A stretch of 64,000 bases of DNA from UHGV virus genome UHGV-0010228; one strand, given 5' to 3'. This document shows, piece after piece, positions 34,264 through 55,410 of this stretch. The notes under the pieces are model-generated. The model ran no database searches. It saw only the letters and a program-made list of their open reading frames with translations, and was not told the origin of the DNA. A program made the translations under genes and the position numbers. The stretch's first letter is position 1, and every line of letters begins with the position of its first letter. This stretch comes from a virus.

Positions 34264-34518
34264 TCTATTACTTTCTCTATTATAACCTATAAATTAATAT
34301 AATAATATCTATAGTATAGAATAATTATATAATATAATTATTCTATACTATAGATATTATTATATTAATTTATAGTATTTTATATTATATATAGATTATA
34401 ACTATAGAAAGGAGATTATATAATTATGGCTTTTTATAGATGTGATAGAGGATTAGGATTTGATATAAGTAATAGTACAGGAAATAGTAGTGATGTATTG
34501 TATAGTAAGAAGTTTAAT
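34264..34518. repeat. inverted repeat IR-A left copy (~255 bp; P + leader + RBS + codons 1-31 of gene A)
   Basis: Reverse-complement identical (4 mismatches near inner end) to 38026-38280. Confidence 0.85.
34287..34375. repeat. 89-bp perfect palindrome P (42-nt arms, 5-nt centre), copy 1
   Basis: ctataaattaatataataatatctatagtatagaataattat ataat ataattattctatactatagatattattatattaatttatag; arms exact reverse complements. Confidence 0.9.
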
Positions 34519-36213
34519 AGAGATGTAGGTGATGTACAATTAAATGAATATAAGTTTCCATCACGTATATCTTACTCGCTACTTTCAAATAACTCTTTTA
34601 GAATTAATTCTAATATATATTTTGTAAATAATCTTTCAATAGATGGTGTTAAGCCCAGTGATATTAAATTAGGAATTAATCTATACAACATAAATGGAAC
34701 TACTAAAATGGCTTGTGCTAATTATAAAGAAACTACCCCCTTTCAGTATATTTCTGATTATATTCCATATTACAAATCCTCATGTTGTATATCCCCATCA
34801 ATTGGGTATAATAATTATATTTGTGGAAATAATACAATATACCAGATAAATAATGATGATAATCATATTATTAAAAAATTTAATCTTACAGAAATTCGTA
34901 ATCAGATTAATTTTTTATATCATAGATATCGATCTCAAAAAATTGAATCTTTTGTTAGTTCTAGATATGTACCAGAAATTTTAATATATGATTACATTCA
35001 TAAGACCGATGATCAAATAAAAACGATCTATAAAAATTATTTCAAATCTAATGGCAATATAAACATTGATCCTGATGATTATATTATTAATTATTTCAAT
35101 AATTTTTATCATCAGGAAATCTACTCTAGCGATATCGGAATATACTCTGAATGCGAAAATTATTTAATGTGTTATTTTCTCGGAAACGAAATTGGATCAG
35201 AAATGATTGATAGTATTGTATTTAAGAATATTGATAATGGGAAATATGACGCTGTATATGATTATACTCCTGCGGGTAGATATACTAGACATTTAGTATA
35301 CTTTTTAATTAAGATTGAGAATGACGAAATATATTTATATTCACAAACACTTTTTTCTAATGAAGAATTTAGATATAAATCTCTTCTAAAAATTGATAAT
35401 AATCATATCTATCATACAATTAACAATAGATCCTCGATGATAGTATGTGAACGAAATTCGAAAACATTTGAAATAATCGCTAAATACTCGGGATTTTATG
35501 ACAATACGTATTATTGCAATATTATTGAGCAAGATAATTATTTTTATTATGTTAAATATGCTAAATTATATAAACTAGATTTGGATCTTAATTTGATATC
35601 ATCTGAATTATTTGATAATGTTGCAACATTATATGGTGATGATCATATAAGTAAAAATCTTTACGCGACGCGGTTATCATATTCAAAAAATCATATTAAT
35701 ATATATGGGTTTACCAACGGATTTGGCTCGAAATCAACTACATTTAATGGTATTTCTGGAACTACGAAATATCTTCATAATGATGAAACTTATATAGATA
35801 TACCAATTCAAACAAATCTAAATACACTTACATTAGCAAATCCTAATCTGCTTAGGGTATATGTTACTGGTTCTATACACATGCTAGAAGATGTAGCGTG
35901 GCTCGAAACAGATGATTGTATATTCATGTTTTATAATAAATCAGAAGCTCCATTATATACAGTATTCAATACTGATTTTACATATGGCTACACATTAGAT
36001 TTATCACAGTATGCATTCTATGATATTTTATCACTGAATTTAAAAAATAATGTATTATATATATCATATAGAGATAGTAATCGCAATAGATTAAATATTT
36101 CTCGTATAGATCTCTACATCAATATTCTTTACTTTCTTAACAATTATAATGAAATTAATATAACTAATATAGACTCTTCTAATTCTAATTATACAGATTA
36201 CTATTTTAATTAA
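34426..36213 (+). CDS. receptor-binding/tail fibre paralogue A (595 aa)
   Basis: GAAAGGAGA RBS; first 28 codons and 160 bp upstream identical to inverted copy at 36256-38118; C-terminal YTDYYFN. Confidence 0.7.
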   Translation: MAFYRCDRGLGFDISNSTGNSSDVLYSKKFNRDVGDVQLNEYKFPSRISYSLLSNNSFRINSNIYFVNNLSIDGVKPSDIKLGINLYNINGTTKMACANYKETTPFQYISDYIPYYKSSCCISPSIGYNNYICGNNTIYQINNDDNHIIKKFNLTEIRNQINFLYHRYRSQKIESFVSSRYVPEILIYDYIHKTDDQIKTIYKNYFKSNGNINIDPDDYIINYFNNFYHQEIYSSDIGIYSECENYLMCYFLGNEIGSEMIDSIVFKNIDNGKYDAVYDYTPAGRYTRHLVYFLIKIENDEIYLYSQTLFSNEEFRYKSLLKIDNNHIYHTINNRSSMIVCERNSKTFEIIAKYSGFYDNTYYCNIIEQDNYFYYVKYAKLYKLDLDLNLISSELFDNVATLYGDDHISKNLYATRLSYSKNHINIYGFTNGFGSKSTTFNGISGTTKYLHNDETYIDIPIQTNLNTLTLANPNLLRVYVTGSIHMLEDVAWLETDDCIFMFYNKSEAPLYTVFNTDFTYGYTLDLSQYAFYDILSLNLKNNVLYISYRDSNRNRLNISRIDLYINILYFLNNYNEINITNIDSSNSNYTDYYFN

Positions 36214-36219
36214 TAAAAT

Positions 36220-36250
36220 ATACATACTATCTATTATAGATAGTATGTAT
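36220..36250. terminator. bidirectional hairpin between convergent paralogues A and A'
   Basis: atacatactatctat t atagatagtatgtat flanked by aaat / ttt. Confidence 0.7.
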
Positions 36251-36255
36251 TTGAT

Positions 36256-38118
36256 TTAGTTAAAGTAATAATCAGTATAAGATTCATTAGATGTATCTAT
36301 AGAATATCCAGAATATGATGTATCATAATCATTAAGAAGATAAAGAGTAGAAGCGTTTTTCGCTAATTCTATAATAAAATATTCCGAACAATAAGGATTT
36401 TTGTTTCCACTCGAATAGACAACATGCGGCATAAATAAATAACGGAATTTATCAATTGGCGATATTAAATATTCAAAATTTGAATTCATTTTATCTTCAA
36501 ATAGACGAATCTCAACTTCATTTGGATAATATGACAGTCTATTTAATAAAATATTTCTTTTAGTCGAATACGCATTCAAAGAAACCATATCCACGCAGAA
36601 AGATGTATTTTTTTTTGTAGCGTTACCACTTTCGACATCTGGTAATTTATAATTTATATCATTAAATGCTTCTAAATTTTCTAAATAATATCCACTAAAT
36701 GAGTTATCTGAGTCGTAACATCCGTTCAATGTCGAAAGGTATGCTGAATAATACGTTTTTCGAGAGTCATAAGAAAAATATAGTTGATTTCCAATTGGAA
36801 GTGGAACTAAATTATACCTGTTATGAAAATAAATATTAGTCTGTTTAGTGTTATTGGATATAAAATAAAGATTAATATATTTATCAATAATTAATTCTCC
36901 TGATATTATATCATAATATCTAATCTTATTAGAAAAAAAGACTATTAATTTTGAATTATCTTGGCTTATTTTATATATTAAATTAAAGGATCCGTCGCCA
37001 CTGATAGATTGAAATGGTTTATTAAATATTGCTATTTCAGACAAGGAATTTCTATCAATTACCACAACGCAATAATCAGTTACGTAAGTAGATTTATAAA
37101 CATACATATCATCATTAATATATGAGTGGTTATTACTAGTATTATAGACCTCAGTGCTATACATCCAATATTTGGCCAGAATCGCCTGATATTCGTTCGT
37201 AGAAGAGTTCATTCCCACTTTATCATTTGGATCAATCTCGAACTTATAACCAATTAAATACGTGTCCGAGACATCTAGTATTGAATATGTTTTCCATTTA
37301 TTTCCTGAATTCATAGAATAATCAATAAGCTCCATATTTTTATTAAATTTACACCAAATATAACCTGGATATATACGTGAAAAATATTTCTTATATGGCG
37401 AATCATTATATGAAAATCTAAAATCTGTAACGTATGGTTTTGGAAATAATAAGAAATAATCTCCCATATCATATAATTTAGTTTTTCGGTGGTTTATGTA
37501 CTTATGAGCATCATATGTATTAGAATCTACCAATGGTGAATTTGGAAATGTGATGTGTTTTATAAGTAAACCATCTGAATTATATATGTAATAATGTATT
37601 AAGCTGTTATAATCAGAGACTGAAAATATATAACAATTATTTGAGCTGTCATATGATATTCTATCATATCTAATATCATAATGGGTTTTATATGAATACA
37701 GATCGTAACGTATCATAGCTGTCTCATAAAATAATAAACTAGCAAATATGTGATCCAATTCGGGCATGTTAATGTATTTTATGGGACTCGTTGTTGTGTC
37801 AACAAATTTACAACATCCACGGATACCATAAATTTCCACTTTCTCAGAAATATAATTTTTAATATCCTTTGTTGTTGGTATAGTGATATCTTTAGTTAAC
37901 ATTGATGGCCTATATCCTCTTTCGTCATAGGATAAATAGTAATCATTCATATGATTTATTGTATTAAACCATACGCTATAAAATGAATTTAACGTTTCAA
38001 TATTACCTTTTCTACTCTCTCCATTGTTAAACGTCTTACTATACAATACATCACTACTCTCTCCTGTACTATTACTTATATCAAATCCTAATCCTCTATC
38101 ACATCTATAAAAAGCCAT
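36256..38118 (-). CDS. receptor-binding/tail fibre paralogue A' (620 aa), convergent with A
   Basis: Same RBS/N-terminus MAFYRCDRGLGFDISNSTG as A; same C-terminal YTDYYFN encoded with different codons. Confidence 0.7.
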   Translation of the reverse strand: MAFYRCDRGLGFDISNSTGESSDVLYSKTFNNGESRKGNIETLNSFYSVWFNTINHMNDYYLSYDERGYRPSMLTKDITIPTTKDIKNYISEKVEIYGIRGCCKFVDTTTSPIKYINMPELDHIFASLLFYETAMIRYDLYSYKTHYDIRYDRISYDSSNNCYIFSVSDYNSLIHYYIYNSDGLLIKHITFPNSPLVDSNTYDAHKYINHRKTKLYDMGDYFLLFPKPYVTDFRFSYNDSPYKKYFSRIYPGYIWCKFNKNMELIDYSMNSGNKWKTYSILDVSDTYLIGYKFEIDPNDKVGMNSSTNEYQAILAKYWMYSTEVYNTSNNHSYINDDMYVYKSTYVTDYCVVVIDRNSLSEIAIFNKPFQSISGDGSFNLIYKISQDNSKLIVFFSNKIRYYDIISGELIIDKYINLYFISNNTKQTNIYFHNRYNLVPLPIGNQLYFSYDSRKTYYSAYLSTLNGCYDSDNSFSGYYLENLEAFNDINYKLPDVESGNATKKNTSFCVDMVSLNAYSTKRNILLNRLSYYPNEVEIRLFEDKMNSNFEYLISPIDKFRYLFMPHVVYSSGNKNPYCSEYFIIELAKNASTLYLLNDYDTSYSGYSIDTSNESYTDYYFN

Positions 38119-38280
38119 AATTATATAATCTCCTTTCTATAGTTATAATCTATATATAATATAAAATACTATAAATTAATATAATAATATCTATAGTATA
38201 GAATAATTATATAATATAATTATTCTATACTATAGATATTATTATATTAATTTATAGGTTATAATAGAGAAAGTAATAGA
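38026..38280. repeat. inverted repeat IR-A right copy
   Basis: See 34264-34518. Confidence 0.85.
38169..38257. repeat. 89-bp perfect palindrome P, copy 2 (between divergent genes A' and B)
   Basis: Identical to 34287-34375. Confidence 0.9.
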
Positions 38281-38296
38281 GATATAGAGATATAGA

Positions 38297-38334
38297 GAAT
38301 GACTATTATTAGTCATTCTATTTGTTTTTTTTTT
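38297..38334 (+). terminator. leader hairpin + T10 upstream of gene B (attenuator-like)
   Basis: gaatgactattattagtcattc then tatttg + tttttttttt; mirrored at 55218-55254 on minus strand upstream of gene B'. Confidence 0.55.
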
Positions 38335-38490
38335 GTTATACATTATATTAATATTATATAATATAAGGAGGTATTATAATGTTTGATTTATATAATACAT
38401 TAGAATCATATAATATAATAGATAATGATTATGCATATGAAGGTATTATAGATAAAGTAAAAAATGTAGGTAGTACTATATGGGGATTTG
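38297..38490. repeat. inverted repeat IR-B left copy (~194 bp; hairpin+T10, leader, RBS, codons 1-37 of gene B)
   Basis: Reverse-complement identical to 55062-55254; outer flank continues into P with a ~20-nt ATAGAG-unit indel. Confidence 0.85.
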
Positions 38491-39203
38491 TAAAGAAAAT
38501 GTGGAAAGGAATGAAAGCTAAACTCGCATGGCTAGTTAAAAAAATGATACGTTCAGTTATAGGTAAAGATACGAAGAAAAAGTCTAAAGATGATGATGTT
38601 ATTGAAGTTGATGCTAAACCTGTAAATAATAAATCTGAAGATTCAAATGAATATAAAAATACAGTAAATAATGCAAAATCAAATATTAATGCTAGGCATT
38701 TAGATGTGAAACTATTAGAAAAATTCTTTAATCTTAGCATGAAACTTTCATCGATACATAGTATAATTAATAGATATCGTATAATGCTGAATCGCCAGTC
38801 GTTACATGATGCTAAAATATTTCGAGATTTAGGTGTTGATGTCGATGATATCAAGGTTGATGAAAACGACAATGATGATGAGGAGAATAAACTTAGAATA
38901 TCAGAAACTAAATCATTCATTGAAGAATTACAAGAAACGCTTAATAAGATTCCTAAGGAAAGCCGCATAAATCTTAAAGAATTTATTAAAACTAATGAAT
39001 CAGTAACAAAAGCATTCGTTACTGATTGTAACAAAACCATTAAAGAAATTGATGAAATTTTAAAAGAAGTTGATAAGTTAGTAAAAACATCAACAAGTAT
39101 AACAGAAAAGACAAAAAATATTATAATCACAAACACAAAAGAGATATCTCAAATAGTTGCAGCATATTATAAGTGTATGTCGGATGCTTATTTTTTACAT
39201 TAA
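38379..39203 (+). CDS. Lys/Glu-rich coiled-coil protein, paralogue B (274 aa)
   Basis: TAAGGAGG RBS; first 36 codons + 80 bp leader identical to inverted copy at 54163-55173. Confidence 0.65.
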   Translation: MFDLYNTLESYNIIDNDYAYEGIIDKVKNVGSTIWGFVKKMWKGMKAKLAWLVKKMIRSVIGKDTKKKSKDDDVIEVDAKPVNNKSEDSNEYKNTVNNAKSNINARHLDVKLLEKFFNLSMKLSSIHSIINRYRIMLNRQSLHDAKIFRDLGVDVDDIKVDENDNDDEENKLRISETKSFIEELQETLNKIPKESRINLKEFIKTNESVTKAFVTDCNKTIKEIDEILKEVDKLVKTSTSITEKTKNIIITNTKEISQIVAAYYKCMSDAYFLH

Positions 39204-39205
39204 TA

Positions 39206-39245
39206 TAATAAATAGAATTACTCATATGAGTAATTCTATTTATTA
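39206..39245 (+). terminator. long AT-rich palindrome after gene B
   Basis: tataataaatagaattactca ta tgagtaattctatttattaata. Confidence 0.55.
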
Positions 39246-39339
39246 ATATCCTTTATTTTACCTTATAATATCAACATTCTTATAATATGTTACATTTTGT
39301 CATGGTAATTTTATTAATTAATATAAAGGAGGTATTTGT

Positions 39340-40365
39340 ATGCCTAGTACAATACGTGGATCACTTGTAGTTCCCCCTAAAGGTAATTCTACAGGAGGAT
39401 CTGGTGGATTTGTAATTACTGTAGATTCTGATGGAAACCTTGATAAATCTTGGGGTGAAATAATCACCGCAAATAATGAAGGTCAGAATTTAATTATAAA
39501 AACCGTAGATGCCAATGGAAATGAACGTATTTTATATTTAGACAATATTGATGTAGATTCAACTACAAATATTGGTGATATCACATTTGTAAGTGGTACT
39601 GTTGATGGTGATGCTTTACAGTTAATATTATCATCTACTGATGGCGTTAATCATACAAAAACCACAACAAATGTAAATTATGTTGTAGCAGGTGCTGATG
39701 GTAAGTTAGATGGAAATTCTATTCCATCAGCATCAGCAACTACTGCAGGTGGAGTTAAATTATCCGATGCTACAGATTCAGATTTAAATGCAGCTACCGG
39801 TGGAACTGCTGCTACTCCTTATGCAGTTAAACAGTTGGCTACTTTAGTTGGTGAAAAGACATCATTTAGAGAAGTTACTCAGGCAGAATATGATGCATTA
39901 GTAGCAGCAAATACTGATGATCCTGAAGTTATCTATGTAATAACAGATTCGGATGATAGTAAGATCATTGGTCTTATAAATGAAACTATTCATCAGAATC
40001 AGACAACGTGGTATGGGACTTCTTCTACTGTAGCAAACTCTCCGGGTAAAACTGTAACTACTACAGGTGGAGATTTTGTACTCAAAGCAGGTAAGAAAGT
40101 AACTGTTAAGTTTACTAATGGTAATACTGCATCAGATATAACTTTAAATGTTGATGGTATGGGTATAAAGAAAATAACTAGATATGGTACTGTAGCTTCA
40201 GGAATATATCCTTGGAGTGCGGGTTCAGTTATTGATTTTATATACGATGGTGAAAGTTTTATAGCATTAAATGCAACTCCTACTATTCGTATAGGGACTA
40301 AAACTCCATCAGCATCAGATGGTATAGATGGTGATATCTTCTTAGTTTATGATGCTAAATCATAA
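39340..40365 (+). CDS. tail fibre protein with TIRGSLVVPPK N-terminal anchor motif
   Basis: AAAGGAGG RBS; Gly/Thr/Ala-rich. Confidence 0.7.
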   Translation: MPSTIRGSLVVPPKGNSTGGSGGFVITVDSDGNLDKSWGEIITANNEGQNLIIKTVDANGNERILYLDNIDVDSTTNIGDITFVSGTVDGDALQLILSSTDGVNHTKTTTNVNYVVAGADGKLDGNSIPSASATTAGGVKLSDATDSDLNAATGGTAATPYAVKQLATLVGEKTSFREVTQAEYDALVAANTDDPEVIYVITDSDDSKIIGLINETIHQNQTTWYGTSSTVANSPGKTVTTTGGDFVLKAGKKVTVKFTNGNTASDITLNVDGMGIKKITRYGTVASGIYPWSAGSVIDFIYDGESFIALNATPTIRIGTKTPSASDGIDGDIFLVYDAKS

Positions 40366-40387
40366 TAAGGAGGTGTGTCATCTTATT

Positions 40388-42403
40388 ATGTCTGAATATA
40401 TAATAAATGAAATCGGTAGTGCAGAGATGTCTATACCAGACGGTCTTTCAGAAGGTGATACTTTAAGATTTAATATTACAAACTCTGATGAAGCAACTGC
40501 ATATACTGGAACTATAATGAACTGGACAGTTCCTATGGACTTAGTTGTTCAGATAGATGCATATGGATCTAGAGGTTCATATGGTAACTTATATACATAT
40601 GGATTAACCGATACATCTAGATCCGGTAATGGTGCACATGTTGGTGGAGTATTTAATTTATCAGCAGGCTCTGAATTATTAATATTAGTTGGTCAACATG
40701 GTAAAGATGCTATGACAGGTACAGGATCTACTAGAGATGGTGTATCTGGTTGCGGTGGTGGAGGAACATTTGTTGTCCTTAAAACTGACGAATCAACTGG
40801 AAGTTTATTTGTTGGATCTGATACTAATGGATCTAAAGCTGCATATGGTGGATGGTATGTTTCGCCATTAGTAATTGCTGCAGGTGGCAATGGATCTAAG
40901 GATAATGGATATTCCGGAACTGGTCCCGGTAGAGGTGGTTTATCTACAACTTATACATCAAAACCTAGTTATTCATCATCATTGACAGGTGGTGGATTTG
41001 ATACTGCATATGGTACAAATAATAGCAATTCATCTTCATATGGATATGGTTTATCATTCTTAAATGGTGGATTAGGATCTCAGTATGCATATAGTAGATC
41101 TAGTATGACACCTAAAGCCGGATTCGGTGGCGGTGGAGGAAACTCCGATGATGGATATGGTGGTGGAGGTGGTGGATACTACGGCGGTATCCAATCTGCT
41201 GCTGCATGCTCATATGTTTCTCCTGATGCTGAATCAGTTATTACTGGTGAGGACGATATTAATGCTGGTGATGGATATGTTATTATAACTATAATTGAAG
41301 GAGGAAAAATATATTCTCCTGAAGTATATATGAGAGATAATGGCGAGATTCATAAATATTCAGATATGAAAGTATCTGTAAATGGCGAATTAAAAACTAT
41401 TAAAAACTTCTATTCTAAAATGGATGGAAAATGGGTTAAAATGGCAAGAGAAATTGTAGTATATGAAGCTGGTAAATCATGGACTCAATCTAATATAGAT
41501 AGTGGAAGTTTTTATAGTGTATATAATGCTAATGGTATATGGGTAGCTTGTAGTGGTGGTAATGGTCTTTATTATTCTACAGATGGTAAAGTATGGACTC
41601 AATCTAATATAACTAATGATGCTTTTCATACTGTATATAATGCTAATGGTATATGGGTAGCAGGTAATAATAATGGTCTATATTATTCTACAGATGGTAA
41701 AGCATGGACTCAATCTAATATAACCACTGGAGGTTTTAGACGAGTATATAATGCTAATGGCATATGGGTAGCATGTGATGCTGATGGTATTTATTATTCT
41801 ATGGATGGTAAATCATGGACTAAATCTAATATGACTTATGGAACTTATCATGATGCATATAATGCTAATGATATATGGGTAGCAGGTGGTAGTGGTAGTC
41901 TTTACTATTCTACAGATGGTAAAGTATGGACTCAATCTAATATAGATAATGGTAGTACTACCATCTTTTTCTCAGTATATAATGCCGATGATATATGGGT
42001 AGCAGGTAGTGATAATGGTCTTTATTATTCTACAGATGGTAAAGTATGGACTCAATCTAATATAGATAATGGTAGTTTTAATACTGTATATAATGCTAAT
42101 GGTATATGGGTAGCTTGTAGTGGTGGTAATGGTCTTTATTATTCTACAGATGGTAAAGTATGGACTCAATCTAATATAGATAATGGTAATTTTAATACTG
42201 TATATAATGCTAATGGTATATGGGTAGCTTGTAGTGATGGTAATGGTCTTTATTATTCTACAGATGGTAAAGTATGGACTCAATCTAATATAGATAATGG
42301 TAATTTTAATACTGTATATAATGCTAATGGTATATGGGTAGCTTGTAGTGATGGTAATGGTCTTTATTATTCAGAAACTAGAACAGAATATGTCAATAAA
42401 TAA
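40388..42403 (+). CDS. receptor-binding protein: Gly-rich domain + ~11 tandem BNR-like 38-aa beta-propeller repeats
   Basis: TAAGGAGGTG RBS before ATG 40388 (track ORF starts at 40349); GFGGGGGNSDDGYGGGGGGYYGG; repeats LYYSTDGKVWTQSNIDNG.FNTVYNANGIWVA. Confidence 0.7.
   Translation: MSEYIINEIGSAEMSIPDGLSEGDTLRFNITNSDEATAYTGTIMNWTVPMDLVVQIDAYGSRGSYGNLYTYGLTDTSRSGNGAHVGGVFNLSAGSELLILVGQHGKDAMTGTGSTRDGVSGCGGGGTFVVLKTDESTGSLFVGSDTNGSKAAYGGWYVSPLVIAAGGNGSKDNGYSGTGPGRGGLSTTYTSKPSYSSSLTGGGFDTAYGTNNSNSSSYGYGLSFLNGGLGSQYAYSRSSMTPKAGFGGGGGNSDDGYGGGGGGYYGGIQSAAACSYVSPDAESVITGEDDINAGDGYVIITIIEGGKIYSPEVYMRDNGEIHKYSDMKVSVNGELKTIKNFYSKMDGKWVKMAREIVVYEAGKSWTQSNIDSGSFYSVYNANGIWVACSGGNGLYYSTDGKVWTQSNITNDAFHTVYNANGIWVAGNNNGLYYSTDGKAWTQSNITTGGFRRVYNANGIWVACDADGIYYSMDGKSWTKSNMTYGTYHDAYNANDIWVAGGSGSLYYSTDGKVWTQSNIDNGSTTIFFSVYNADDIWVAGSDNGLYYSTDGKVWTQSNIDNGSFNTVYNANGIWVACSGGNGLYYSTDGKVWTQSNIDNGNFNTVYNANGIWVACSDGNGLYYSTDGKVWTQSNIDNGNFNTVYNANGIWVACSDGNGLYYSETRTEYVNK
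41468..42372 (+). repeat. tandem array of 114-bp coding repeats (BNR-like blade units); last three units >97% identical
   Basis: Units at 42061-42174, 42175-42288, 42289-42370 differ by 1-2 nt. Confidence 0.85.
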
Positions 42404-42421
42404 AATTGGGGGTGATATTTC

Positions 42422-43165
42422 ATGAAAATGATGAAAAGAAATAAAACTACCGGTAATCGTGAGATTATTGGTGGTAGCGTAGCACCTGCTACAATAAAAG
42501 TTGAAAATGTTGGTACTGATGTTAAGATAACAACAACTGACCAGGAAGAAACTACAGTAGCAACATTTGGTAATGGTATAAAAGTTGTAGGTACATTATC
42601 TAAAGGTGCTACTGAAATTATACTCAAACATGATCAGATAACTGAAGATAGTATTATTGAATGCTATAGTAGTGTATACAATGCTAGACCACAAGATATT
42701 GAAACTAGTAGTGGGCAGGTTAAATTAACATTTGCTGCTCAGAGTAGTGATATACAAGTTATGATATTAATCAAAACTGTAGACATGGGTAAAGTATATC
42801 TTGATACAACAGATGCAACAGCAACTGCCAGTGATATCGCTAATGGCAAAACTGCATATGTAAATGGTAAGAAAATAAGTGGTGGGTTAGAAAACGCTGA
42901 TTTAATTCATTTAGGAATAACAGACACATCAGAATTGCGCGATTTTGATGATTCAAAAGCAATTGGTGTTTTATATTCTAGTAATTATAAAATGACTTCT
43001 GATAGACTTACCTCCGGAAAATATATTGTTGATATGTCTAATACGGTTATAACTGCATATGCATCATATGCTGCATTAGCCGAGGTTATTGGATTAACTG
43101 CAGATAAGATTGTAAAAGGCAATACTATATTAGGTATTGCTGGAACTGCAGAAGTATCATCATAA
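42422..43165 (+). CDS. fibre-associated protein (247 aa), paralogue of next gene
   Basis: GGGGGTGA RBS; N-terminus MKMMKRNKTTGNREIIGG; C-terminal ADKIVKGNTILGIAGT module. Confidence 0.6.
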   Translation: MKMMKRNKTTGNREIIGGSVAPATIKVENVGTDVKITTTDQEETTVATFGNGIKVVGTLSKGATEIILKHDQITEDSIIECYSSVYNARPQDIETSSGQVKLTFAAQSSDIQVMILIKTVDMGKVYLDTTDATATASDIANGKTAYVNGKKISGGLENADLIHLGITDTSELRDFDDSKAIGVLYSSNYKMTSDRLTSGKYIVDMSNTVITAYASYAALAEVIGLTADKIVKGNTILGIAGTAEVSS

Positions 43166-43186
43166 CTAATTGGTGGTGATTGTATT

Positions 43187-46249: not shown

Positions 46250-46298
46250 AATTACGGTATATTCTATATATAGAATATACCGTAATTTCTTTTTTTTT
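46250..46298 (+). terminator. identical terminator copy 2
   Basis: Same 53-bp sequence as 43556-43609 (T-run one shorter). Confidence 0.8.
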
Positions 46299-46362
46299 AT
46301 TAGTATATTATTAAAGTGAATAAATACAATACATAGTATATAATATAAGGAGGAATATTACT

Positions 46363-46893: not shown

Positions 46894-46910
46894 ATATCGT
46901 AAAAAATATA

Positions 46911-46940
46911 AGTTAGGTTTTCCCTAACTTTATTTTTTAT
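46911..46940 (+). terminator. hairpin terminator after moron 46363-46893
   Basis: agttagg ttttc cctaact + ttattttttat. Confidence 0.6.
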
Positions 46941-46952
46941 ACTTATACCTGC

Positions 46953-46969
46953 CAAAACATCACAATAAA
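46953..46969 (+). promoter_or_regulatory. conserved fibre-gene upstream motif caaaacatcacaataaa
   Basis: 46 nt upstream of ATG 47015. Confidence 0.5.
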
Positions 46970-47014
46970 AATTAATAAAATAAATTATTTTTTGAAAGGA
47001 GTTGACTTAAATAT

Positions 47015-50000
47015 ATGCCATGGTTTCCTACATGTGGAGGCGTTGATACATCAGACGCAAATGTAACTCCAGAAGATGTATTAGAAGGAAAAATAGTATA
47101 TTCACATAATGGCCCAGTTGTGGGCACAATACCAAGTTTACCAGAAAAAACCTGGATTCCAGGACCTGAAGAACAGGTAATTCCGGGAGGACATTATATT
47201 GCAGGTACACAGACAATTAAAGGTGATCCTAACCTTTATCCAGAAAATATAGTTAAAGGTAAAACTATATTTGGTGTAGAAGGCACAGGTATACCTGTGG
47301 AATTTAACGATCCAACATTTATTGAAAAATTGTGCGTATCAGATTTTAAAGGTAAAGTTGATTTCTCTAAAGATTCCGAATATTTCTATACTTATGGTAC
47401 TTCAATTATTAATAAACATAATTCGACAACTGGAGAAGTTATATGGTCTCAATCAATATCTGATGATACTAAAAAAATATATTCAAATTTATATATAACA
47501 CCAGATGATCTTCTTATATATTATGGATCTAAAAATGGATATTTAAATTCAATAATAGCAGATTCAGGAATTTCTCATTTAAGTGTTAAGGTATTAGATA
47601 CAACAAAATCTGTTGAATATATAAAGGGTATTGAAAATTATAAAGGTTCAACATTCAGCTTATTATTATTTGTGCCAAATACAACAGTTATTGGAAGGGT
47701 AGATTTTATTGACACGTCTACTAATAATATAGAAACAATTACTATACCATCTAGTTATTCTATCGATGTCGATGATAAGGATATCTATTATTATTGCAAT
47801 TCTTCTTCTCCAAGAAAGATATGCAAGATATGTACAGATTCAGCGGATAATTATGAAATTGAAACTGGAACTATAAATAGTTATGGAATACAACCTGATG
47901 GAAAATATTTATACACAGTAGCTAAGGTTGATAATACTACTGATAAATTATCACAGTATAATGCAGAAACTGGTGCATTAGTACGTAGTGTGAACGTTGA
48001 TGTAAACACCCGTGATAACTGCTCATTACTTATTACGGATAGTTTATCGGAATATATATATCTTCAAAATACTAGAACTATATATAGATACTCAACTGAT
48101 TTGTTGTTAAATTATGCTAATAACCCATTTTTATTTACAGATGGTACAGTGTCCAGTGCTGTTGATAGTGCTAGTGTTGATAGTAATGGAGAATATGTAT
48201 ATGTATCATATTTAAGTGAAGATACCTCTGAGTTGTATAAATATAAGCAGGTATTTGGATCAATATACCCATTGGAAAATCCGGATCCTTATATCAATAT
48301 AGATAGAATTATTAAGAGAAAGAAAGATACTTATAAAACATATGAAACCCCAGTAGAAATCTGGGATGATGAATATGATTCAGAAATTGACTCTATTAGT
48401 TGTACTGATGATGGTCATTATGTATACATATGCACGCAGAATAATGGATTTATAAAAATGAATTCTGTAAATAAGAAAATTATATGGTCATATAATGATG
48501 GTATGTCAGGATATGTAGTTGTAGATCATAATGATAAGTATGTATATGTAGCAACGAATAGTGCATTAACTAAACTTGACGCATCAAATGGTAATGTTGT
48601 AATTTCATTATCAGATTATGCAAGATCTAGAACTGCTGCATATTCTATACAGAATATGACTATTACAGATGATAATGAATATTTAGTATATATTAATAAC
48701 AATAGTAGCTCTGCAAGTAGTAGTAAAATTGTTAAATTTAAAACTTCAGATATGAGTGTTAAATGGGAAAAGACACCTCATACTAATTACATTAACCAAT
48801 TAGATTTAGTAAGTAAAACTGGAGATATATATTTCAATAAATCTTCTCAGATACCTATTGAAACGGATTATATTCTTCCATTCACTGGTGGTGTAAATAA
48901 TGTAGTATATTTTAATAGTAAATATTTATTATTACCTAATAAAACTTTCATTACTAATAGTGAAACTAATACAACTGAGTTTACTTATTACTTAGGCGAT
49001 ACTCTTAATATAGCGTATATGGAAAAGCACACTATTAGTACTGATGGGATGAATACTAATTTTAGCGATTATACGATAACCAAAATAGTTGCATCTTCAT
49101 ATGTGTGTATTATATATGTAAAAGGCATTGACAATGCATCATTAACTGAAAGTGAAACTTCATTAAATAAATATTATTATACTTATGATGGCGTAAATTG
49201 GAGTGAGGGTTCATTTGGTTTATACTGCCCAACGTCAAATATTATTAATTGTAGTAATACATTTATATATTCGGCATCGGATAAGAGTACATATAATAAA
49301 TTATTCTCATCATATGATGGAATAAATTGGACTGAGAATACTAATTATACAGATACATATACTAATGGTACTGTATGGGGATTAGGATATGTCAATTCAA
49401 GATATTTATTAGTATCTAATATATTACAATATTCTACAGATTTTAAAACTTTTAGTACTGCAACTATTGCTAGTTTGCCTAGTGAAACTGCTGTTGGTGA
49501 GAATTTTGCTAATAAATATGGAGAAATTCACTGTGTTTATATATATAGCAGATATTATTTAGCTTGTGCTGATGGAATATATTATTCGTCTGATTTAAAT
49601 ACTTGGACAAAATGTACATTTACTTATCCGACTAGTGCGGATTTTCCTTCCGAATTATCTTACCCATTATTAATGACCAACTATAGTAATTATATATATA
49701 TTATAGAATCTGCTAGTGGTAATACAGCTGAAATATCGAATTATGTAAGATCAATTTATATTACTTCAACATCACAGACATCTTTCAATGTAACTAATAT
49801 TAAAGCTGCACCATTATTAAGTGAAACATCATCAACATCAACATTATTTGTAACTGGTGGATGTGTAAGTGATAATGCTATTGCCGGTCTTTATTATTCT
49901 ACAGATGGTAAAACATGGACTCAGTCTAATCTAACAACTGGACTTTTTAGCGATGTGTGTAATTTTGATATATGGGTAGCAGGTAGTAGTGATGATGGAC

Positions 50001-53000
50001 TTTATTATTCTATAGATGGTAAAACGTGGACTCAATCTAATATAACAACTGGTCATTTTAGTGCTGTATATAATACTACTGGCATATGGATAGCAGGTAG
50101 TAGTATTTTTGATAGTAAAGGTCTTTATTATTCTACAAATGGTAAAACATGGTTTCAATCTAATATAACAAGCGGAGGATTCTATACTATAAATTATGCT
50201 AATGATATATATCTAGCTTGTGGGGAAGGACTTTATTATTCTACAGACGGTAAAACATGGGAAAAGACTACTGTGAGTGGAGGATATCTGACTAGTGGGG
50301 GTTTTAGAAATGCATATTACGCTGATGCTATGTGGGTAGTGTGTAGTAATGATGACTATTGCTCTTATTATTCTAAAGATGGTAAAGCGTGGGCGCAATG
50401 TGAACCAGCTGTCGAAGAGGATGTATTTTGTAATATAGTATATTATTCTAATAAGAGTATATGGGTAGCTGGTAGTGAGCAAAGTAATGGATTGCAATAC
50501 TCTACAAATGGTATGTCGTGGACTCAGTCTAATATAAGCACTGGAATTATTAGAACGGTGTGTTATGGTAATAATATAGTTATAGCTGGTGGATATAACA
50601 CTGGTATATATTATTCTACAGATGGTAAAACGTGGACTCAATCTAATACAACCACTGGATCTTTTAATTTACTTTATTATTATGAGGATATATATATAGC
50701 TGTTAGTGGCAATAATAAAGGTCTTTATTATTCTACAGATGGTAAAACATGGACTCAATCTAATATAACTAGTGGAAGTTTTATGACTTCTATAGGTGAA
50801 TCATACCACCCAGTTACAACAAATAACAACAATAATTACATCTACTGTAATAGTAGATTAGCATCTTTCCCTGCGGTTACTGCTGATGATACTCATAGTA
50901 ATACTAAATATAGTATTGGATCATTAGAGAATTCTAAAATTCAACAATTAACTTATCAGGATACTAGAACTACTAATACAACATATTACGGATTATCTAC
51001 ATTTAATAATTCAACAGCAATATTATTAGGTCAATTCGAAGGGGCGAATCAAATTACTGATAATTATGCATATTCTACAGATAGTGGAGCAACATGGACT
51101 GGTGCGCATATGCCTAAAAAAGGCGAATGGATACATGTCGGAAAATTAATGAGTAAATATATTGCAGTATGTAATAGTAGTAATAATTTAGCAATATATG
51201 AATCGTCAGATGGGAAATCATGGTCACAGGGATCTATAACAAATTCCAATGGTAACGCATTAGCAAATAACATGATATCTATAAATAACGATGAAAATGA
51301 TGTTAAAATAAAAGTAATAACTAGTCCACTTATATCATCATTTGCAATAATCGTTTATACAACAATTGGCATAAATGTTGAAGGATATTATGTTTCATCT
51401 TCATTAAGCACTGGAAGTGCATTTAAAGTACAAAATTTCTCATCAAATATGACATCAACCCCATTATGTGCTATAAACGATACTTCACAAAAATGTATGT
51501 TTTTAGGTTGGAGTAATAATGGTAAATTTATGTACAGTGATGATATGCTATTATCACTCATGAATGGTGATTACTATACTGAAGTTACATCTTCAGAATC
51601 AATATCAAACTGGGATATGTATTCTGAAATAACAGGTGTAAAACTTTCAGATACTCAATATTTAGTATCGATGCAACCAACTTCATCATCAAGCTTAGTT
51701 AAAGTAGGATTGCTCGATACAAGTGCAAATACTTTAACATTTAGAGCGTCAACGTGGTATAATGGTAGATTTGTTGCTCCAGCAAATGGTAAGTTATATG
51801 CACTTAATACTTATAGTGTAAATGGAAATAGTGGTGGAGGTAAATTTACATCTATAACAAACTATGACACAACTAATACTGTAAAAGATGATGTTCTTCC
51901 GTCAGATCTATCATCATCTATAAGTAAAAATGATAAAACATATACTACATTATGCTCTTCAGGTACAAATCTTATTACAGTTATAAATGGTGAACCATAT
52001 GCATATTATACTAAGAACCCATTAGTAATTTCTGGTGGTGATGATAGATATATTAGAGCTATAGATTTCTTAACTGGAAATACAATATGGTCATTCTCAT
52101 TATCATATGCTGCAAATGGTATATATGTAAGTGATGATAAGAAGTTTGTATATGCTACAGTAAATGGCAATTCATCATCAGCTAATCTTTATAAATATAA
52201 TATTAATGCTACTAATTTATCTTCAATGAAGTATTCTACTAATTCATATTCTAGTGCAATATTCGGTAATGGAGATAAGATATTTACTGTTAAAAGTTCT
52301 AATGGTGGTATATTAGCCGCATATGATCCTGAATATCTTACAAATGATTATTCACTTACAGGTGCTAATGATACATCAACTGGACAGGAATATGGTAGAT
52401 GTTTAACTTATGATTCTGCTGGTGATTATATATATGCTGGTACTTATATGAATACTGGCAAAGGCCATTTACATAAATATAAATTAAAAGAAATTGAATA
52501 TGAAAAGATAGCAAGGGTATATAAGACTACTACAACAGGAGAAGATACTGAGGGAAAGGTATGGACTCAATCTAATATAAATAGTGGAGATTTTTATACA
52601 GTGTATTATGGTAATAGTATATGGGTAGCCGGCAGTATTAGCGGTAAAGGTCTTTATTATTCTACAAACGGTAAAGTATGGACTCAATCTAATATAACTA
52701 GTGGAGATTTTAGATCTGTATATAATGCTAATGGTATATGGGTAGCTGCTAGTGATAGTGATAATGGTCTATATTATTCTACAGATGGTAAAGTATGGAC
52801 TCAATCTAATATAAATAGTGGATATTTTTATACAGTGTATTATGATAATAGTATATGGGTAGCTTGTAGTGGTAAAGGTATATTTTATTCTACAGATGGT
52901 AAATCATGGACTCAATCTAATATAAATAGTGGAGATTTTTATACAGTGTATAATGCTAATGGTATATGGATAGCTGGTGGTATTGATACTGGTCTTTATT

Positions 53001-53476
53001 ATTCTACAAACGGTAAAGTATGGACTCAATCTAATATAACTAGTGGAGATTTTAGATCTGTATATAATGCTAATGGTATATGGGTAGCTGGTAGTGATAG
53101 TGATAATGGTCTATATTATTCTACAGATGGTAAAGTATGGACTCAATCTAATATAGATAATGGTAGTTTTAATACTGTATATTATGCTAATGATATATGG
53201 GTAGCTGGTAGTAGTGTTAATAAAGGTCTTTATTATTCTACAGATGGTAAATCGTGGACTCAATCTAATATAACTAGTGGAGATTTTAGATCTGTATATA
53301 ATGCTAATGGTATAATTATTGCTGGTAGTTATAGTAGTAATGGTATATTTTATTCTACAGATGGTAAATCATGGATTCAATCTAATATAAATAGTGGAGA
53401 TTTTTATACTGTATATAATGCTAATGGTATATGGGTAGCTGGTAGTATTGATACTGGTCTTTATTATTCAGAATAA
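47015..53476 (+). CDS. giant receptor-binding protein (2153 aa) with multiple BNR-like beta-propeller arrays
   Basis: GAAAGGAG RBS; N-terminal module shared with 43688 and 55467; two arrays of near-identical 114-bp repeats (49876-50790, 52556-53473). Confidence 0.75.
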   Translation: MPWFPTCGGVDTSDANVTPEDVLEGKIVYSHNGPVVGTIPSLPEKTWIPGPEEQVIPGGHYIAGTQTIKGDPNLYPENIVKGKTIFGVEGTGIPVEFNDPTFIEKLCVSDFKGKVDFSKDSEYFYTYGTSIINKHNSTTGEVIWSQSISDDTKKIYSNLYITPDDLLIYYGSKNGYLNSIIADSGISHLSVKVLDTTKSVEYIKGIENYKGSTFSLLLFVPNTTVIGRVDFIDTSTNNIETITIPSSYSIDVDDKDIYYYCNSSSPRKICKICTDSADNYEIETGTINSYGIQPDGKYLYTVAKVDNTTDKLSQYNAETGALVRSVNVDVNTRDNCSLLITDSLSEYIYLQNTRTIYRYSTDLLLNYANNPFLFTDGTVSSAVDSASVDSNGEYVYVSYLSEDTSELYKYKQVFGSIYPLENPDPYINIDRIIKRKKDTYKTYETPVEIWDDEYDSEIDSISCTDDGHYVYICTQNNGFIKMNSVNKKIIWSYNDGMSGYVVVDHNDKYVYVATNSALTKLDASNGNVVISLSDYARSRTAAYSIQNMTITDDNEYLVYINNNSSSASSSKIVKFKTSDMSVKWEKTPHTNYINQLDLVSKTGDIYFNKSSQIPIETDYILPFTGGVNNVVYFNSKYLLLPNKTFITNSETNTTEFTYYLGDTLNIAYMEKHTISTDGMNTNFSDYTITKIVASSYVCIIYVKGIDNASLTESETSLNKYYYTYDGVNWSEGSFGLYCPTSNIINCSNTFIYSASDKSTYNKLFSSYDGINWTENTNYTDTYTNGTVWGLGYVNSRYLLVSNILQYSTDFKTFSTATIASLPSETAVGENFANKYGEIHCVYIYSRYYLACADGIYYSSDLNTWTKCTFTYPTSADFPSELSYPLLMTNYSNYIYIIESASGNTAEISNYVRSIYITSTSQTSFNVTNIKAAPLLSETSSTSTLFVTGGCVSDNAIAGLYYSTDGKTWTQSNLTTGLFSDVCNFDIWVAGSSDDGLYYSIDGKTWTQSNITTGHFSAVYNTTGIWIAGSSIFDSKGLYYSTNGKTWFQSNITSGGFYTINYANDIYLACGEGLYYSTDGKTWEKTTVSGGYLTSGGFRNAYYADAMWVVCSNDDYCSYYSKDGKAWAQCEPAVEEDVFCNIVYYSNKSIWVAGSEQSNGLQYSTNGMSWTQSNISTGIIRTVCYGNNIVIAGGYNTGIYYSTDGKTWTQSNTTTGSFNLLYYYEDIYIAVSGNNKGLYYSTDGKTWTQSNITSGSFMTSIGESYHPVTTNNNNNYIYCNSRLASFPAVTADDTHSNTKYSIGSLENSKIQQLTYQDTRTTNTTYYGLSTFNNSTAILLGQFEGANQITDNYAYSTDSGATWTGAHMPKKGEWIHVGKLMSKYIAVCNSSNNLAIYESSDGKSWSQGSITNSNGNALANNMISINNDENDVKIKVITSPLISSFAIIVYTTIGINVEGYYVSSSLSTGSAFKVQNFSSNMTSTPLCAINDTSQKCMFLGWSNNGKFMYSDDMLLSLMNGDYYTEVTSSESISNWDMYSEITGVKLSDTQYLVSMQPTSSSSLVKVGLLDTSANTLTFRASTWYNGRFVAPANGKLYALNTYSVNGNSGGGKFTSITNYDTTNTVKDDVLPSDLSSSISKNDKTYTTLCSSGTNLITVINGEPYAYYTKNPLVISGGDDRYIRAIDFLTGNTIWSFSLSYAANGIYVSDDKKFVYATVNGNSSSANLYKYNINATNLSSMKYSTNSYSSAIFGNGDKIFTVKSSNGGILAAYDPEYLTNDYSLTGANDTSTGQEYGRCLTYDSAGDYIYAGTYMNTGKGHLHKYKLKEIEYEKIARVYKTTTTGEDTEGKVWTQSNINSGDFYTVYYGNSIWVAGSISGKGLYYSTNGKVWTQSNITSGDFRSVYNANGIWVAASDSDNGLYYSTDGKVWTQSNINSGYFYTVYYDNSIWVACSGKGIFYSTDGKSWTQSNINSGDFYTVYNANGIWIAGGIDTGLYYSTNGKVWTQSNITSGDFRSVYNANGIWVAGSDSDNGLYYSTDGKVWTQSNIDNGSFNTVYYANDIWVAGSSVNKGLYYSTDGKSWTQSNITSGDFRSVYNANGIIIAGSYSSNGIFYSTDGKSWIQSNINSGDFYTVYNANGIWVAGSIDTGLYYSE
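49876..50790 (+). repeat. tandem BNR-like repeat array 1 in giant fibre gene
   Basis: Recurring ggtctttattattctacagatggtaaaacatggactcaatctaatataac units. Confidence 0.8.
52556..53473 (+). repeat. tandem BNR-like repeat array 2 in giant fibre gene (eight 114-bp units)
   Basis: Near-identical units e.g. 52677-52790 vs 53022-53136. Confidence 0.8.
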
Positions 53477-53633
53477 TTTTATTTTTTAAATCTAAAAATT
53501 TATATTTAATATTAACACTTAATTCACACAAAAGAAGAGTTAAAAATATTAATATTTAATGATATTAATATTTTTCTATTAATAAATTTTGTGTTAATTG
53601 AGTAAATTCAATTAATAATTCAAATTTGTAATT

Positions 53634-53692
53634 AAAAAAAAATGTAGATGAGTATATATTTTAAAATATATACTCATCTACATTTTTTTTTT
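53634..53692. terminator. bidirectional A9-palindrome-T10 terminator between giant fibre gene and gene B'
   Basis: aaaaaaaaa tgtagatgagtatatatttt aaaatatatactcatctaca tttttttttt. Confidence 0.8.
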
Positions 53693-53730: not shown

Positions 53731-53770
53731 CTATAAATTAATATATAGATATTATTATATTAATTTATAG
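53731..53770. repeat. truncated P element
   Basis: ctataaattaatata + tagatattattatattaatttatag followed by gtaaataagagagaaa and palindrome gaatgactaatattagtcattc (53793-53814). Confidence 0.7.
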
Positions 53771-54162
53771 GTAAATAAGAGAGAAAAATAGTGAATGACT
53801 AATATTAGTCATTCACTATTTTAATATATTTAAATATTTATTAGCTTCATCATTACTTATCTTACACGTTCACGATAATGCTTACTCCGTAAAGTATTTA
53901 TTATATTATACATTTCATCTTTACTCATGAATCGAAGCTGATTATCTAATTTATACACATAAAATTTTGTGGTACCTAAATCAGATTTAAACGTTACTGC
54001 TGAAAAAGATATACCTTTGACTTTAAAATATTTAATTTTTGACTTGATATTTGGATTTGAGTTAGTAATCTCTTTACCTTTTTCTTTAGCTTGAATCTTA
54101 TAGAATTCGATAAAGAATTTTTCATTAAGAGTAGTCCGTTTAAAAGGTTATATAATTAATTA

Positions 54163-55173
54163 TTAATTTGGCGATACTATTAATTTAGATATAATTGCGC
54201 TTATTCTGGTATAATGAGATGATAAATATTTAGTTTTTTTGAGAATGAGTTCATGTATATTAGTTCCTGTACGGCCGTCACCTATGCGTTGTCGTGCAAT
54301 ACGTAATCCGTTGTCATTTTTCATATTAAATTCGTAATTTCCATGATGAGTTTTTAACTCATTCAGTCTGTTATTGATAAAATTTAAGATAATACCGGCG
54401 CTCTTGTTTAATTTCGATACTTTATTTAAAAGTGTAATATAATGTTTTTCAACACTAGGTATCTTACTCGTTAATAGATTAGATCCTTTATTCGCTATAC
54501 TATTTTCCAATTTTGTTAATTGAGAATCAATCTCATCATTAGAATAACGACGGCTATTATCCTCATAATATTCTAAGCGATCTTCTGCCTTATCATCTGA
54601 TATTATTTTTGTTCCTCGTTTAGCTTCGAGAATTATTATATTTAACGCTTCGTTATATCTATTAGCTTCCACATCTATATAATCTGCTATTCTTACCAAG
54701 AATCTCAAATCAATTTCTAAGTCTTTTTTCAATTGATTACCTTTTAATTTAGGGCTTTTATATCTACTAGTCTTTTCAGGCTCTGGTAAACTTTTAACTA
54801 TTGGCTTATCTTCTTCTTTACCATCACTTTTTAATCTTCTTCTAGTTATATTCTTACCTCTACCTTTAGCAAATTTATTAGATGTAGAAGTAGATAAATT
54901 ATCTTCATCATTTTCTTCTGGATATGGTTCTTCTTCATCTTCTTCTTCTATTGATTTATTTCCTCTATTTTTAATAAAGTTTTTAACAGATTCCCACGCT
55001 TTCTTTATCTTTTTACCTAATTCTCCTAATTTATTCGTTATAGTTTCCCATATTTTCTTTAACCATCCCCATATAGTACTACCTACATTTTTTACTTTAT
55101 CTATAATACCTTCATATGCATAATCATTATCTATTATATTATATGATTCTAATGTATTATATAAATCAAACAT
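54163..55173 (-). CDS. Lys/Glu-rich protein, paralogue B' (336 aa)
   Basis: RBS and first 36 codons identical to 38379 gene in inverted orientation. Confidence 0.65.
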   Translation of the reverse strand: MFDLYNTLESYNIIDNDYAYEGIIDKVKNVGSTIWGWLKKIWETITNKLGELGKKIKKAWESVKNFIKNRGNKSIEEEDEEEPYPEENDEDNLSTSTSNKFAKGRGKNITRRRLKSDGKEEDKPIVKSLPEPEKTSRYKSPKLKGNQLKKDLEIDLRFLVRIADYIDVEANRYNEALNIIILEAKRGTKIISDDKAEDRLEYYEDNSRRYSNDEIDSQLTKLENSIANKGSNLLTSKIPSVEKHYITLLNKVSKLNKSAGIILNFINNRLNELKTHHGNYEFNMKNDNGLRIARQRIGDGRTGTNIHELILKKTKYLSSHYTRISAIISKLIVSPN

Positions 55174-55254
55174 TATAATACCTCCTTATATTATATAATA
55201 TTAATATAATGTATAACAAAAAAAAAACAAATGAATGACTAATAATAGTCATTC
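55062..55254. repeat. inverted repeat IR-B right copy
   Basis: See 38297-38490. Confidence 0.85.
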
Positions 55255-55272
55255 TCTATTCTCTATTATAAC

Positions 55273-55326
55273 CTATAAATTAATATAATTATTCTATACT
55301 ATAGATATTATTATATTAATTTATAG
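55273..55326. repeat. truncated P element (left arm deleted)
   Basis: ctataaattaatata + attattctatactatagatattattatattaatttatag; followed by gtaaataagagagaaagtaataga. Confidence 0.75.
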
Positions 55327-55410
55327 GTAAATAAGAGAGAAAGTAATAGATAGAGTAATGATAGATAGAGTATACATCGTCTTAGATGTATACTCATATA
55401 TTATTCGCCT

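Follow-up and report, generated by a model that had tools for sequence, protein, structure and literature searches.

The window analysed here is a 64,000-nucleotide (nt) stretch of the virus genome UHGV-0010228, and its subject is two pairs of convergent genes in the tail-fibre region, A/A' and B/B', the heads of which form two large inverted repeats, IR-A and IR-B. The source genome is that of an AR9/phiKZ-related gut jumbo phage of ~256 kb. A 256,540-bp contig with the same proteins is present in cluster records, and related contigs measure 223-235 kb. With a GC content of ~30%, the window carries genes for a terminase, for the sheath and tube of the tail and for a head-tail joining protein; its terminase is closest, at 35% amino acid (aa) identity, to the enzymes of two Bacillus jumbo phages, BpSp and AR9. 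The two gene pairs and their repeats comprise the following features.

34258-34517, plus strand: left arm of IR-A, with CTCTAT repeats, the X flank, the palindrome PAL1, a leader with a Shine-Dalgarno (SD) sequence and the first ~30 codons of A
34426-36213, plus strand: gene A, 595 aa, fibre-like over its N-terminal ~100 aa, with a unique body and a type 1 C-terminus ending in YTDYYFN
36115-36344, no strand: conserved centre, comprising the 3' modules of A and A' and a putative bidirectional terminator hairpin (36220-36250)
36256-38118, minus strand: gene A', 620 aa, of the same family, with another body and a type 2 C-terminus
38027-38286, minus strand: right arm of IR-A, mirroring the left arm
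38291-38545, plus strand: left arm of IR-B, with a hairpin, a T-run, TTGTTA-18-TATAAT, AAGGAGG, and 36 identical followed by ~20 diverging codons of B
38379-39203, plus strand: gene B, 274 aa, of the B family, conserved in every strain seen
54163-55173, minus strand: gene B', 336 aa, of the B family, with a body unrelated to that of B and replaced by a different body in other strains
55007-55260, minus strand: right arm of IR-B, containing hairpin t2' (55233-55254)

The arms of IR-A are 260 nt long and 98% complementary, with 5 mismatches and 3509 nt between them. They contain 168 nt of upstream DNA and ~30 codons of A and A', close to the ~255 bp, 160 bp and 28 codons given in the original prediction. 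In IR-B, positions ~38291-38487 pair with 55065-55260 with one 1-nt indel, followed by a decaying tail to 38545/55007, and codons 1-36 of B and B' are identical beneath this repeat. Its perfect run of 168 nt (38320-38487) is the longest exact inverted repeat of the window, compared with 16-19 nt in 20 Markov-1 simulations of the window. The original prediction described nested perfect inverted repeats. Both pairs are real, but perfection is confined to the core of IR-B, and the word nested applies loosely: the IR-A pair lies entirely to the left of the IR-B pair, and the two abut at the hairpin 38296-38319, although PAL and its outer flank do reappear past the right IR-B arm (55254-55328). The abutment had been placed correctly, at a "palindrome P" that is this hairpin, here named t2. 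The outer pair was likewise rightly said to bracket the fibre genes, with an interval that measures 16.5 kb instead of 17 kb.

Identical architecture was observed in independent assemblies from other samples. An assembly artefact was rejected because independent samples and assemblers yield the same arrangement. Short-read assemblies break exactly at the arms. The genome of ERZ27286939 was assembled as three contigs (235,396, 16,745 and 3,861 bp), and its two small contigs are exactly the IR-B-bounded and the PAL-bounded segments. Searches with the exact 5' module and with profile-derived patterns found no relatives in IMG/VR, the JGI metagenomes or the GTDB genomes, so the comparative data consist of ENA/Logan contigs throughout. 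A megablast search of INPHARED with 33900-39300 and an Rfam search of 33000-56500 gave no match.

The A-family unit has a fixed order of outer hairpin, CTCTAT repeats, PAL, leader with SD, conserved codons, body, tail and terminator. It comprises 26-31 conserved 5' codons, an unalignable body and ~30 conserved C-terminal codons. A comparison of related phages for other gene bodies on the same 5' module, as the original prediction had proposed, revealed at least 12 distinct A bodies (573-724 aa) on one common 5' cassette. Family members start with MAFYRCDRGLGFD... and finish with ...YTDYYFN at an overall identity of 23-31%, and the family profile has only 18 matches among 1.84 billion representative proteins. 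Between A and A', BLASTP detects 29 of 31 N-terminal residues in common and nothing else. The heptapeptide YTDYYFN was correctly described as written with different codons, with 4 synonymous differences over the 7 codons. The remainder of the two genes was also held to be unrelated at the DNA level, which is true of the bodies but not of the 3' ends, where 36168-36301 forms a 75% inverted repeat. The conserved centre retains 94-99% identity to other strains despite the differing bodies. The GC content of the A/A' segment (34001-38000) is 25-26%, against 30-37% in the structural genes around it, and its proteins are very rich in Asn, Tyr and Ile.

Three long fibre proteins (860, 2153 and 1423 aa) have an N-terminal domain in common, and residues 1-108 of family A match it (hhalign probability 89.7%, E 1.8e-6); the protein P0018 bridges family A and these long fibre proteins. 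This N-terminal homology suggests a fibre-like or receptor-binding role for family A. Comparison of A, A', B and B' with Pfam and PHROGs returned nothing meaningful.

Every A-family site contains a palindrome, PAL, and hairpins accompany it. The original prediction had overlooked these palindromes, together with the 3' module and its terminator, the solo-PAL scars, the extra family copies and the doubt that B and B' are fibre genes. In the window the elements are as follows.

34224-34251, no strand: t1, a GC-containing, bidirectional terminator-like hairpin at the outer end of the left A cassette, homologous to t2
34278-34384, no strand: PAL1, a 107-nt palindrome with a perfect 87-nt core (34288-34374) and the ends CTATAAAT and ATTTATAG
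38160-38266, no strand: PAL2, the second full-length palindrome, also a 93% direct repeat of PAL1
38296-38319, no strand: t2, a hairpin followed by a T-run on the plus strand, belonging both to the B cassette and to the outer end of the A' cassette
53731-53770, no strand: PAL3, a shortened 40-nt palindrome between the hairpins 53639-53686 and 53785-53822 (t3), flanked by CTCTAT/AGAG repeats
55273-55326, no strand: PAL4, a 54-nt palindrome with its centre deleted and the outer flank of PAL1

PAL2 can be a direct as well as an inverted repeat of PAL1 because PAL is palindromic. The element is restricted to A-family sites: all 8 occurrences of its arm motif CTATAAATTAATATAAT (chance expectation, 0.8) lie at the four PAL sites. 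Each PAL is accompanied on its outer flank by CTCTAT-type repeats and a GC-containing hairpin, and terminator-like hairpins are ~25-fold enriched in the PAL and cassette regions. PAL4 is the empty form of a site that is occupied by an A-family pair in contig k141_119764 and apparently in three other contigs. PAL3 can be interpreted as the solo scar of a further A-family site, and both shortened palindromes look like solo scars, each lying between both outer-flank repeats and hairpins. The ~340 nt 3' of B', beside PAL3 (53823-54162), contain no open reading frame (ORF) longer than 43 aa and may be the remnant of a decayed gene.

Three PAL types (34, 87 and 90 nt) were observed, with common ends (CTATAAAT/ATTTATAG) and a variable, self-complementary interior. 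The PAL type is uniform inside a genome and different between genomes. In the sample ERZ26858444, PAL differs from that of the window by ~6 substitutions and 3 indels per arm, each of which is mirrored in the opposite arm, and the same type occurs at another of its sites. Conserved ends, variable length and a fully compensated interior demonstrate that selection or exchange keeps PAL palindromic as such. PAL always lies 40-50 nt upstream of an A-family SD, a placement that would fit a regulatory or RNA element. As RNA from inside the left arm, it is predicted to form a 33-bp hairpin in the 5' untranslated region (-49.9 kcal/mol, z -8.6); as DNA, it is predicted to extrude a cruciform (-34.6 kcal/mol, z -12.2). 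The one asymmetric centre base (34331, 38213) is A on the plus strand wherever PAL flanks a pair, and T in a solo scar PAL (L005, ~9842), through a point change or a flipped palindrome. The CTATAAAT box was considered as a T4-type late promoter (TATAAATA) and dropped, the motif being common in AT-rich DNA and its placement unspecific.

Family B consists of proteins of ~200-350 aa that start with MFDLYNTLESYNII... and carry unrelated bodies, with at least 4 paralogues in the source genome. Their heads comprise a hairpin, a T-run, a sigma-70-like promoter sequence, an SD and 14-56 conserved codons. In IR-B, the head runs from the hairpin (38296-38319) through the T-run, TTGTTA-18-TATAAT (10 of 12 consensus positions) and AAGGAGG to the ATG, and at least 5 genes of the family begin with this head. 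Promoter and terminator activity of the A and B cassettes are predicted from such elements. A second convergent B-family pair with this head lies ~12-14 kb upstream of the window (L023, 6171 plus and 8158 minus). The body of B' differs in another strain, where 14 codons alone are common to both versions. B and B' are not evidently fibre proteins. The B-family leader (38379-38450, 55102-55173; P0023, P0026 and L012 863-1543) ends in (A/S)-Y-E-G though the preceding residues vary. This we take, speculatively, to resemble the S/A/G-X-E cleavage motif of phiKZ-type prohead proteases, with the cut between (A/S)YE and G. By this analogy, the B-family proteins could, again speculatively, be processed virion proteins or ejected proteins. 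The G-runs of the B-family heads vary among assemblies, with GGGG or GGGGG (38482-38485/55067-55070; L018 ~2100; L019) and a run of 9 G at L023 6210-6220; this variation splits or shifts ORFs and may represent slipped-strand phase variation or sequencing error.

Strain comparison revealed loss, relocation and replacement of these units. The A/A' pair is absent beside B in L005 (contig k141_119764) and in L008, where a scar lies between the 68-aa gene and B: a single PAL with a truncated A' leader to its left. In L012, from the same contig k141_119764, a pair occupies the interval from a B'-like gene to the 1423-aa fibre gene, the position at which the window has the solo PAL4; L014-L016 also terminate in an A-type arm there. 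The left member of the relocated pair is gene A of the window (99.1% identity across 2,081 nt), and the core flanks are likewise 98-99% identical. L012 matches the window at 34274-36344 (99.1%) and at 38041-38312 (96%). Identity thus ends at 36344 in the 3' module of A' and returns at 38041, at codon 26 in the 5' module; an unrelated 573-aa body stands in place of the A' body. In ERZ26858444, two contigs of 3.7-3.9 kb with similar coverage each carry a convergent pair, adding four further bodies. Their central 3' modules and terminator are 83-94% identical to those of the window, and the bodies are unalignable. Related strains also have a singleton A gene (696 aa), 9.8 kb upstream of the window. 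Its palindrome measures 34 nt and keeps the usual ends; leader, SD and terminator hairpin are likewise those of the paired genes.

The arms evolve in concert, their polymorphisms being genome-specific. Codon 14 is ATA in both arms of the window and ACT in both arms of another strain, and the N20/E20 variant at codon 20 is swapped relative to the A body between strains. The first 13 codons are nucleotide-identical in every A copy, and the codons of YTDYYFN vary at 4 synonymous sites. The observed breakpoints mostly avoid PAL. They map to the 5' (coding) and 3' modules of the genes, to t2 and to the X/Y flanks, and include one imprecise deletion. General recombination is therefore favoured over a site-specific enzyme. 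The strain arrangements were also considered as inversion isomers, produced by successive PAL1 x PAL4, IR-B x IR-B and IR-A x IR-A events. This idea was rejected because the empty site retains a truncated A' leader and because the relocated pair has a site-2-type flank that ends in half of t2. The scar and the relocated flank fit a deletion, a duplication or a transfer by homologous recombination, and not clean inversions. A transposon was rejected as well: the apparent duplication is the entire 87-107-nt PAL, with no short target-site duplication and no transposase.

The inverted repeats are probably by-products of two hypervariable multi-copy gene families that exchange their bodies by homologous recombination on conserved handles. 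Two A units placed tail to tail around one bidirectional terminator would generate IR-A automatically, and B and B' in opposite orientation would generate IR-B. Recombination or gene conversion would hold the heads (cassettes of ~100-300 nt) nucleotide-identical inside a genome, and the heads, plus the tails in family A, would act as homology handles. On these handles, general homologous recombination, which we infer as the enzymology, would replace bodies, delete units, and relocate or duplicate whole pairs among sites. Because PAL is palindromic, any two A cassettes would be homologous in both orientations, so that both inversion and deletion with circle formation would be possible; inversion between the arms would be nearly silent. 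PAL might also stimulate exchange, being homologous both ways and, as a long palindrome, fragile. The original prediction had favoured modular exchange or gene conversion on shared 5' modules at a diversification hotspot, and the strain replacements, the relocation and the genome-specific arms bear this out.

Several points weigh against the exchange of bodies on shared handles. The strain comparison rests on a narrow base of ~10 metagenome samples, and assemblies display the majority arrangement only. The search for recombinases covered ~90 kb of the ~256-kb genome. Homology handles alone do not account for the strict palindromy of PAL, which hints at an additional structural role. Moreover, the upstream regions of A, A', B and B' contain neither the AR9-type early nor the AR9-type late motif, and the A and B genes thus lack the late motif that is present before the long fibre genes. 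The AlphaFold2 model of A was unusable (6-sequence alignment, mean pLDDT 30.3). Because of this and the missing late motif, a virion or receptor-binding role of A is drawn from its N-terminal homology.

Among the other explanations, PAL could be a folded-DNA site resembling integron attC, at which a dedicated nuclease or recombinase would release A pairs in circular form, for insertion at any other PAL in either of the two orientations. We regard this as unlikely, although the conserved ends (CTATAAAT/ATTTATAG) on a length of 34-94+ nt, the strain differences mirrored in the other arm, the two PALs at occupied sites against one at the empty site 4, the confinement to A-family sites and the strong predicted DNA fold would all agree with it. 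Conversely, the empty site beside B is an imprecise scar with breakpoints outside PAL, the right flank of the relocated pair stops inside t2, and the breakpoints of the body swaps lie in coding modules. The position of PAL 40-50 nt before the SD equally fits a 5' untranslated or regulatory element, and no recombinase was found in ~90 kb. That figure comprises the window, in which none of 39 ORFs matched a recombinase family in Pfam and none of the 29 also compared with PHROGs did so, as the original prediction had stated for the window, and the precomputed Pfam annotation of L012, L013 and L023 (~26 kb of flanks), in which no recombinase family was present. If true, an attC-like PAL would constitute a virus-encoded, orientation-independent cassette system for host-range genes, including exchange with a co-infecting relative. 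Static ancient duplications, in which purifying selection acting on a regulatory element and on an N-terminal anchor would alone maintain the 5' identity with no exchange, are improbable. Protein-level conservation of the N-terminal peptide and of the C-terminal heptapeptide in all members would agree with them, and the synonymous differences at the C-terminus are what purifying selection alone predicts. However, the synonymous sites of the first 13-26 codons and ~170 nt of non-coding DNA are identical between the arms, the arm variants are genome-specific, and the same A gene (99%) occupies different sites in strains that are ~98-99% identical, with its partner replaced and scars left behind.

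A programmed switch, in which an invertase encoded elsewhere would flip the 3.5-kb and/or the 16.5-kb segment and change fibre gene expression, is the most doubtful of these explanations. Large inverted repeats surround genes with fibre-like N-termini, and short-read assemblies break at the arms, though this is expected for any repeat longer than k. Programmed inversions usually have a nearby recombinase and change expression, and invertible regions with no recombinase nearby are also known (PMC9881135). Here, upstream cassette, SD, ATG and N-terminal codons are present in both arms of a pair, so that inversion would swap like for like and leave expression unchanged; the original prediction had correctly called such an inversion nearly symmetric. 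The arms are 200-260 nt long, not crossover sites of 20-35 nt, singletons and other loci carry these cassettes too, and the window and flank scans gave no invertase match. A single orientation is seen in all contigs that span an arm, whether the left one (L005, L006, L008) or the right one (L004, L012, L018). The Mu G/P1 C-type invertible switch that had been offered as the other possible origin is not upheld by these observations.

The long fibre genes between and beside the repeats differ from the A and B genes in their upstream motifs and vary by another route.

39340-53476, plus strand: block of long fibre genes between the IR-B arms, with AR9-type AACA-N6-TA motifs upstream and Asp-box-like tandem repeats
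55467-59738, plus strand: 1423-aa fibre gene with a TTG start, right neighbour of the alternative cassette site

Despite a two-fold depletion across the window (61 observed versus 128 +/- 13 expected), the AR9 late promoter consensus AACA-N6-TR (PMC5312081) precedes many structural genes by 25-80 nt, the long fibre genes among them (for example at 9486, 21843, 23762, 39273, 43628, 46956 and 55414). The exact AR9 early consensus, AAATATATATTAT-N6-G, was found once in the window (7591-7610). Several fibre genes contain tandem coding repeats of 111-117 nt (YYSTDGKxWTQSNI, Asp-box/BNR-like) at 33405-33564, 41399-42472, 49846-50821, 52429-53569 and 62780-64000. The repeat copy number differs by strain, giving proteins of 684 versus 595, 633 or 619 aa and of 2153 versus 1843 aa, and the gene at the end of the window encodes 964-1162 aa across strains. 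Tandem-repeat copy number is a second, independent route of fibre gene variation. In addition, a 64-nt cassette with a 38-nt perfect palindrome (AATTACGGTATATTCTATATATAGAATATACCGTAATT) and a T-run is present at 43553-43616 and 46243-46306, as a 94% direct repeat that brackets the 860-aa fibre gene; a further copy lies ~18 kb upstream of the window (L023 1410-1553). This is one more repeated regulatory cassette and could mediate deletion or exchange.

For an uncultured AR9/phiKZ-like gut jumbo phage, the exchange of bodies on shared handles would provide a route to diversifying putative host-recognition genes. The route would rely on neither a switch nor a diversity-generating retroelement, with a population-wide pool of unrelated bodies combined with fixed 5' and 3' handles at several sites. 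The long, co-varying palindrome before every family-A gene offers a well-defined candidate for a regulatory or recombinogenic element. Because repeats of this kind break short-read assemblies at the arms, long reads should be at hand before the copy number or the orientation of such modules is trusted in a metagenome-assembled phage genome.

Invertible tail-fibre segments include the G segment of Mu (Gin), the C segment of P1 (Cin), and those of e14 (Pin) and p15B (Min). In the Gin/Cin type, crossover sites of 26-34 bp lie in the coding region behind a single fixed promoter and a constant N-terminal part, and an adjacent serine invertase flips the segment so that one alternative is expressed. 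The present locus is similar in that inverted repeats bracket opposed fibre-type alternatives in the tail-fibre region. In contrast, its arms measure 260 nt and ~197-254 nt, the promoter and the constant 5' part are not outside the segment, both genes can be co-expressed, and no invertase match was found in the 39 window ORFs or in L012, L013 and L023. None of the three defining features that were tested was found, and the locus is not a Gin/Cin-type switch. Integron attC cassettes depend on the tyrosine integrase IntI, an attI site and the Pc promoter, and extrahelical bases set the strand choice. Common to both systems are palindromic sites with conserved ends and a variable self-complementary interior, two copies at occupied sites and one at the empty site, and cassettes at alternative positions. 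The differences are that the scans gave no IntI-like integrase match, that there is no attI/Pc platform, that each cassette brings its own expression signals along with two convergent genes, and that PAL is near-perfect without extrahelical bases, with breakpoints mostly outside it.

The distal tail-fibre and adhesin genes of T-even phages are reportedly mosaics formed by exchange, and the variable ORFs of the internal-protein locus are said to share one capsid-targeting leader (Tetart 1998; Repoila 1994; see also PMC3157838). There, as here, short conserved motifs or N-terminal leaders serve as handles for swapping specificity parts, with many bodies on one N-terminal peptide. Here, however, the handle includes ~170 nt of non-coding upstream DNA that is nucleotide-identical inside the genome, whole gene pairs relocate, and a palindrome is present.

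The nearest described system is the promoter-early stem-loop (PeSL) cassettes of T4-type phages (Arbiol et al. 2010, PMC2839356; see also Comeau et al. 2014, PMC4122927). In hyperplastic regions, a PeSL repeat comprising a stem-loop terminator, a sigma-70-like promoter and an SD flanks variable genes; the breakpoints of insertions, deletions and replacements lie in the cassettes, and neighbouring cassettes can release mini-circles (PMC2839356). By its sequence, the IR-B head, with a hairpin, a T-run, TTGTTA-18-TATAAT and AAGGAGG, matches this description. Comparison of the window with k141_119764 likewise shows loss and relocation of a pair, and replacement of the A' and B' bodies with breakpoints in the cassettes. 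The original prediction knew of no described system with this layout; it is less unusual than that, resembling PeSL-type cassettes and classical tail-fibre cassette exchange. There are also clear differences. PeSL hosts are T4-type myoviruses with early promoters for the host RNA polymerase, whereas the present phage is AR9/phiKZ-like. Here, the cassettes reach 14-56 codons into the genes and define two paralogous families, of which family A is further marked by a conserved 3' module and, in place of the short GC stem of PeSL, by a long co-varying palindrome, and the convergent arrangement of the pairs creates large inverted repeats. The locus would thus extend PeSL-style cassette shuffling to a very different phage lineage and into coding sequence.

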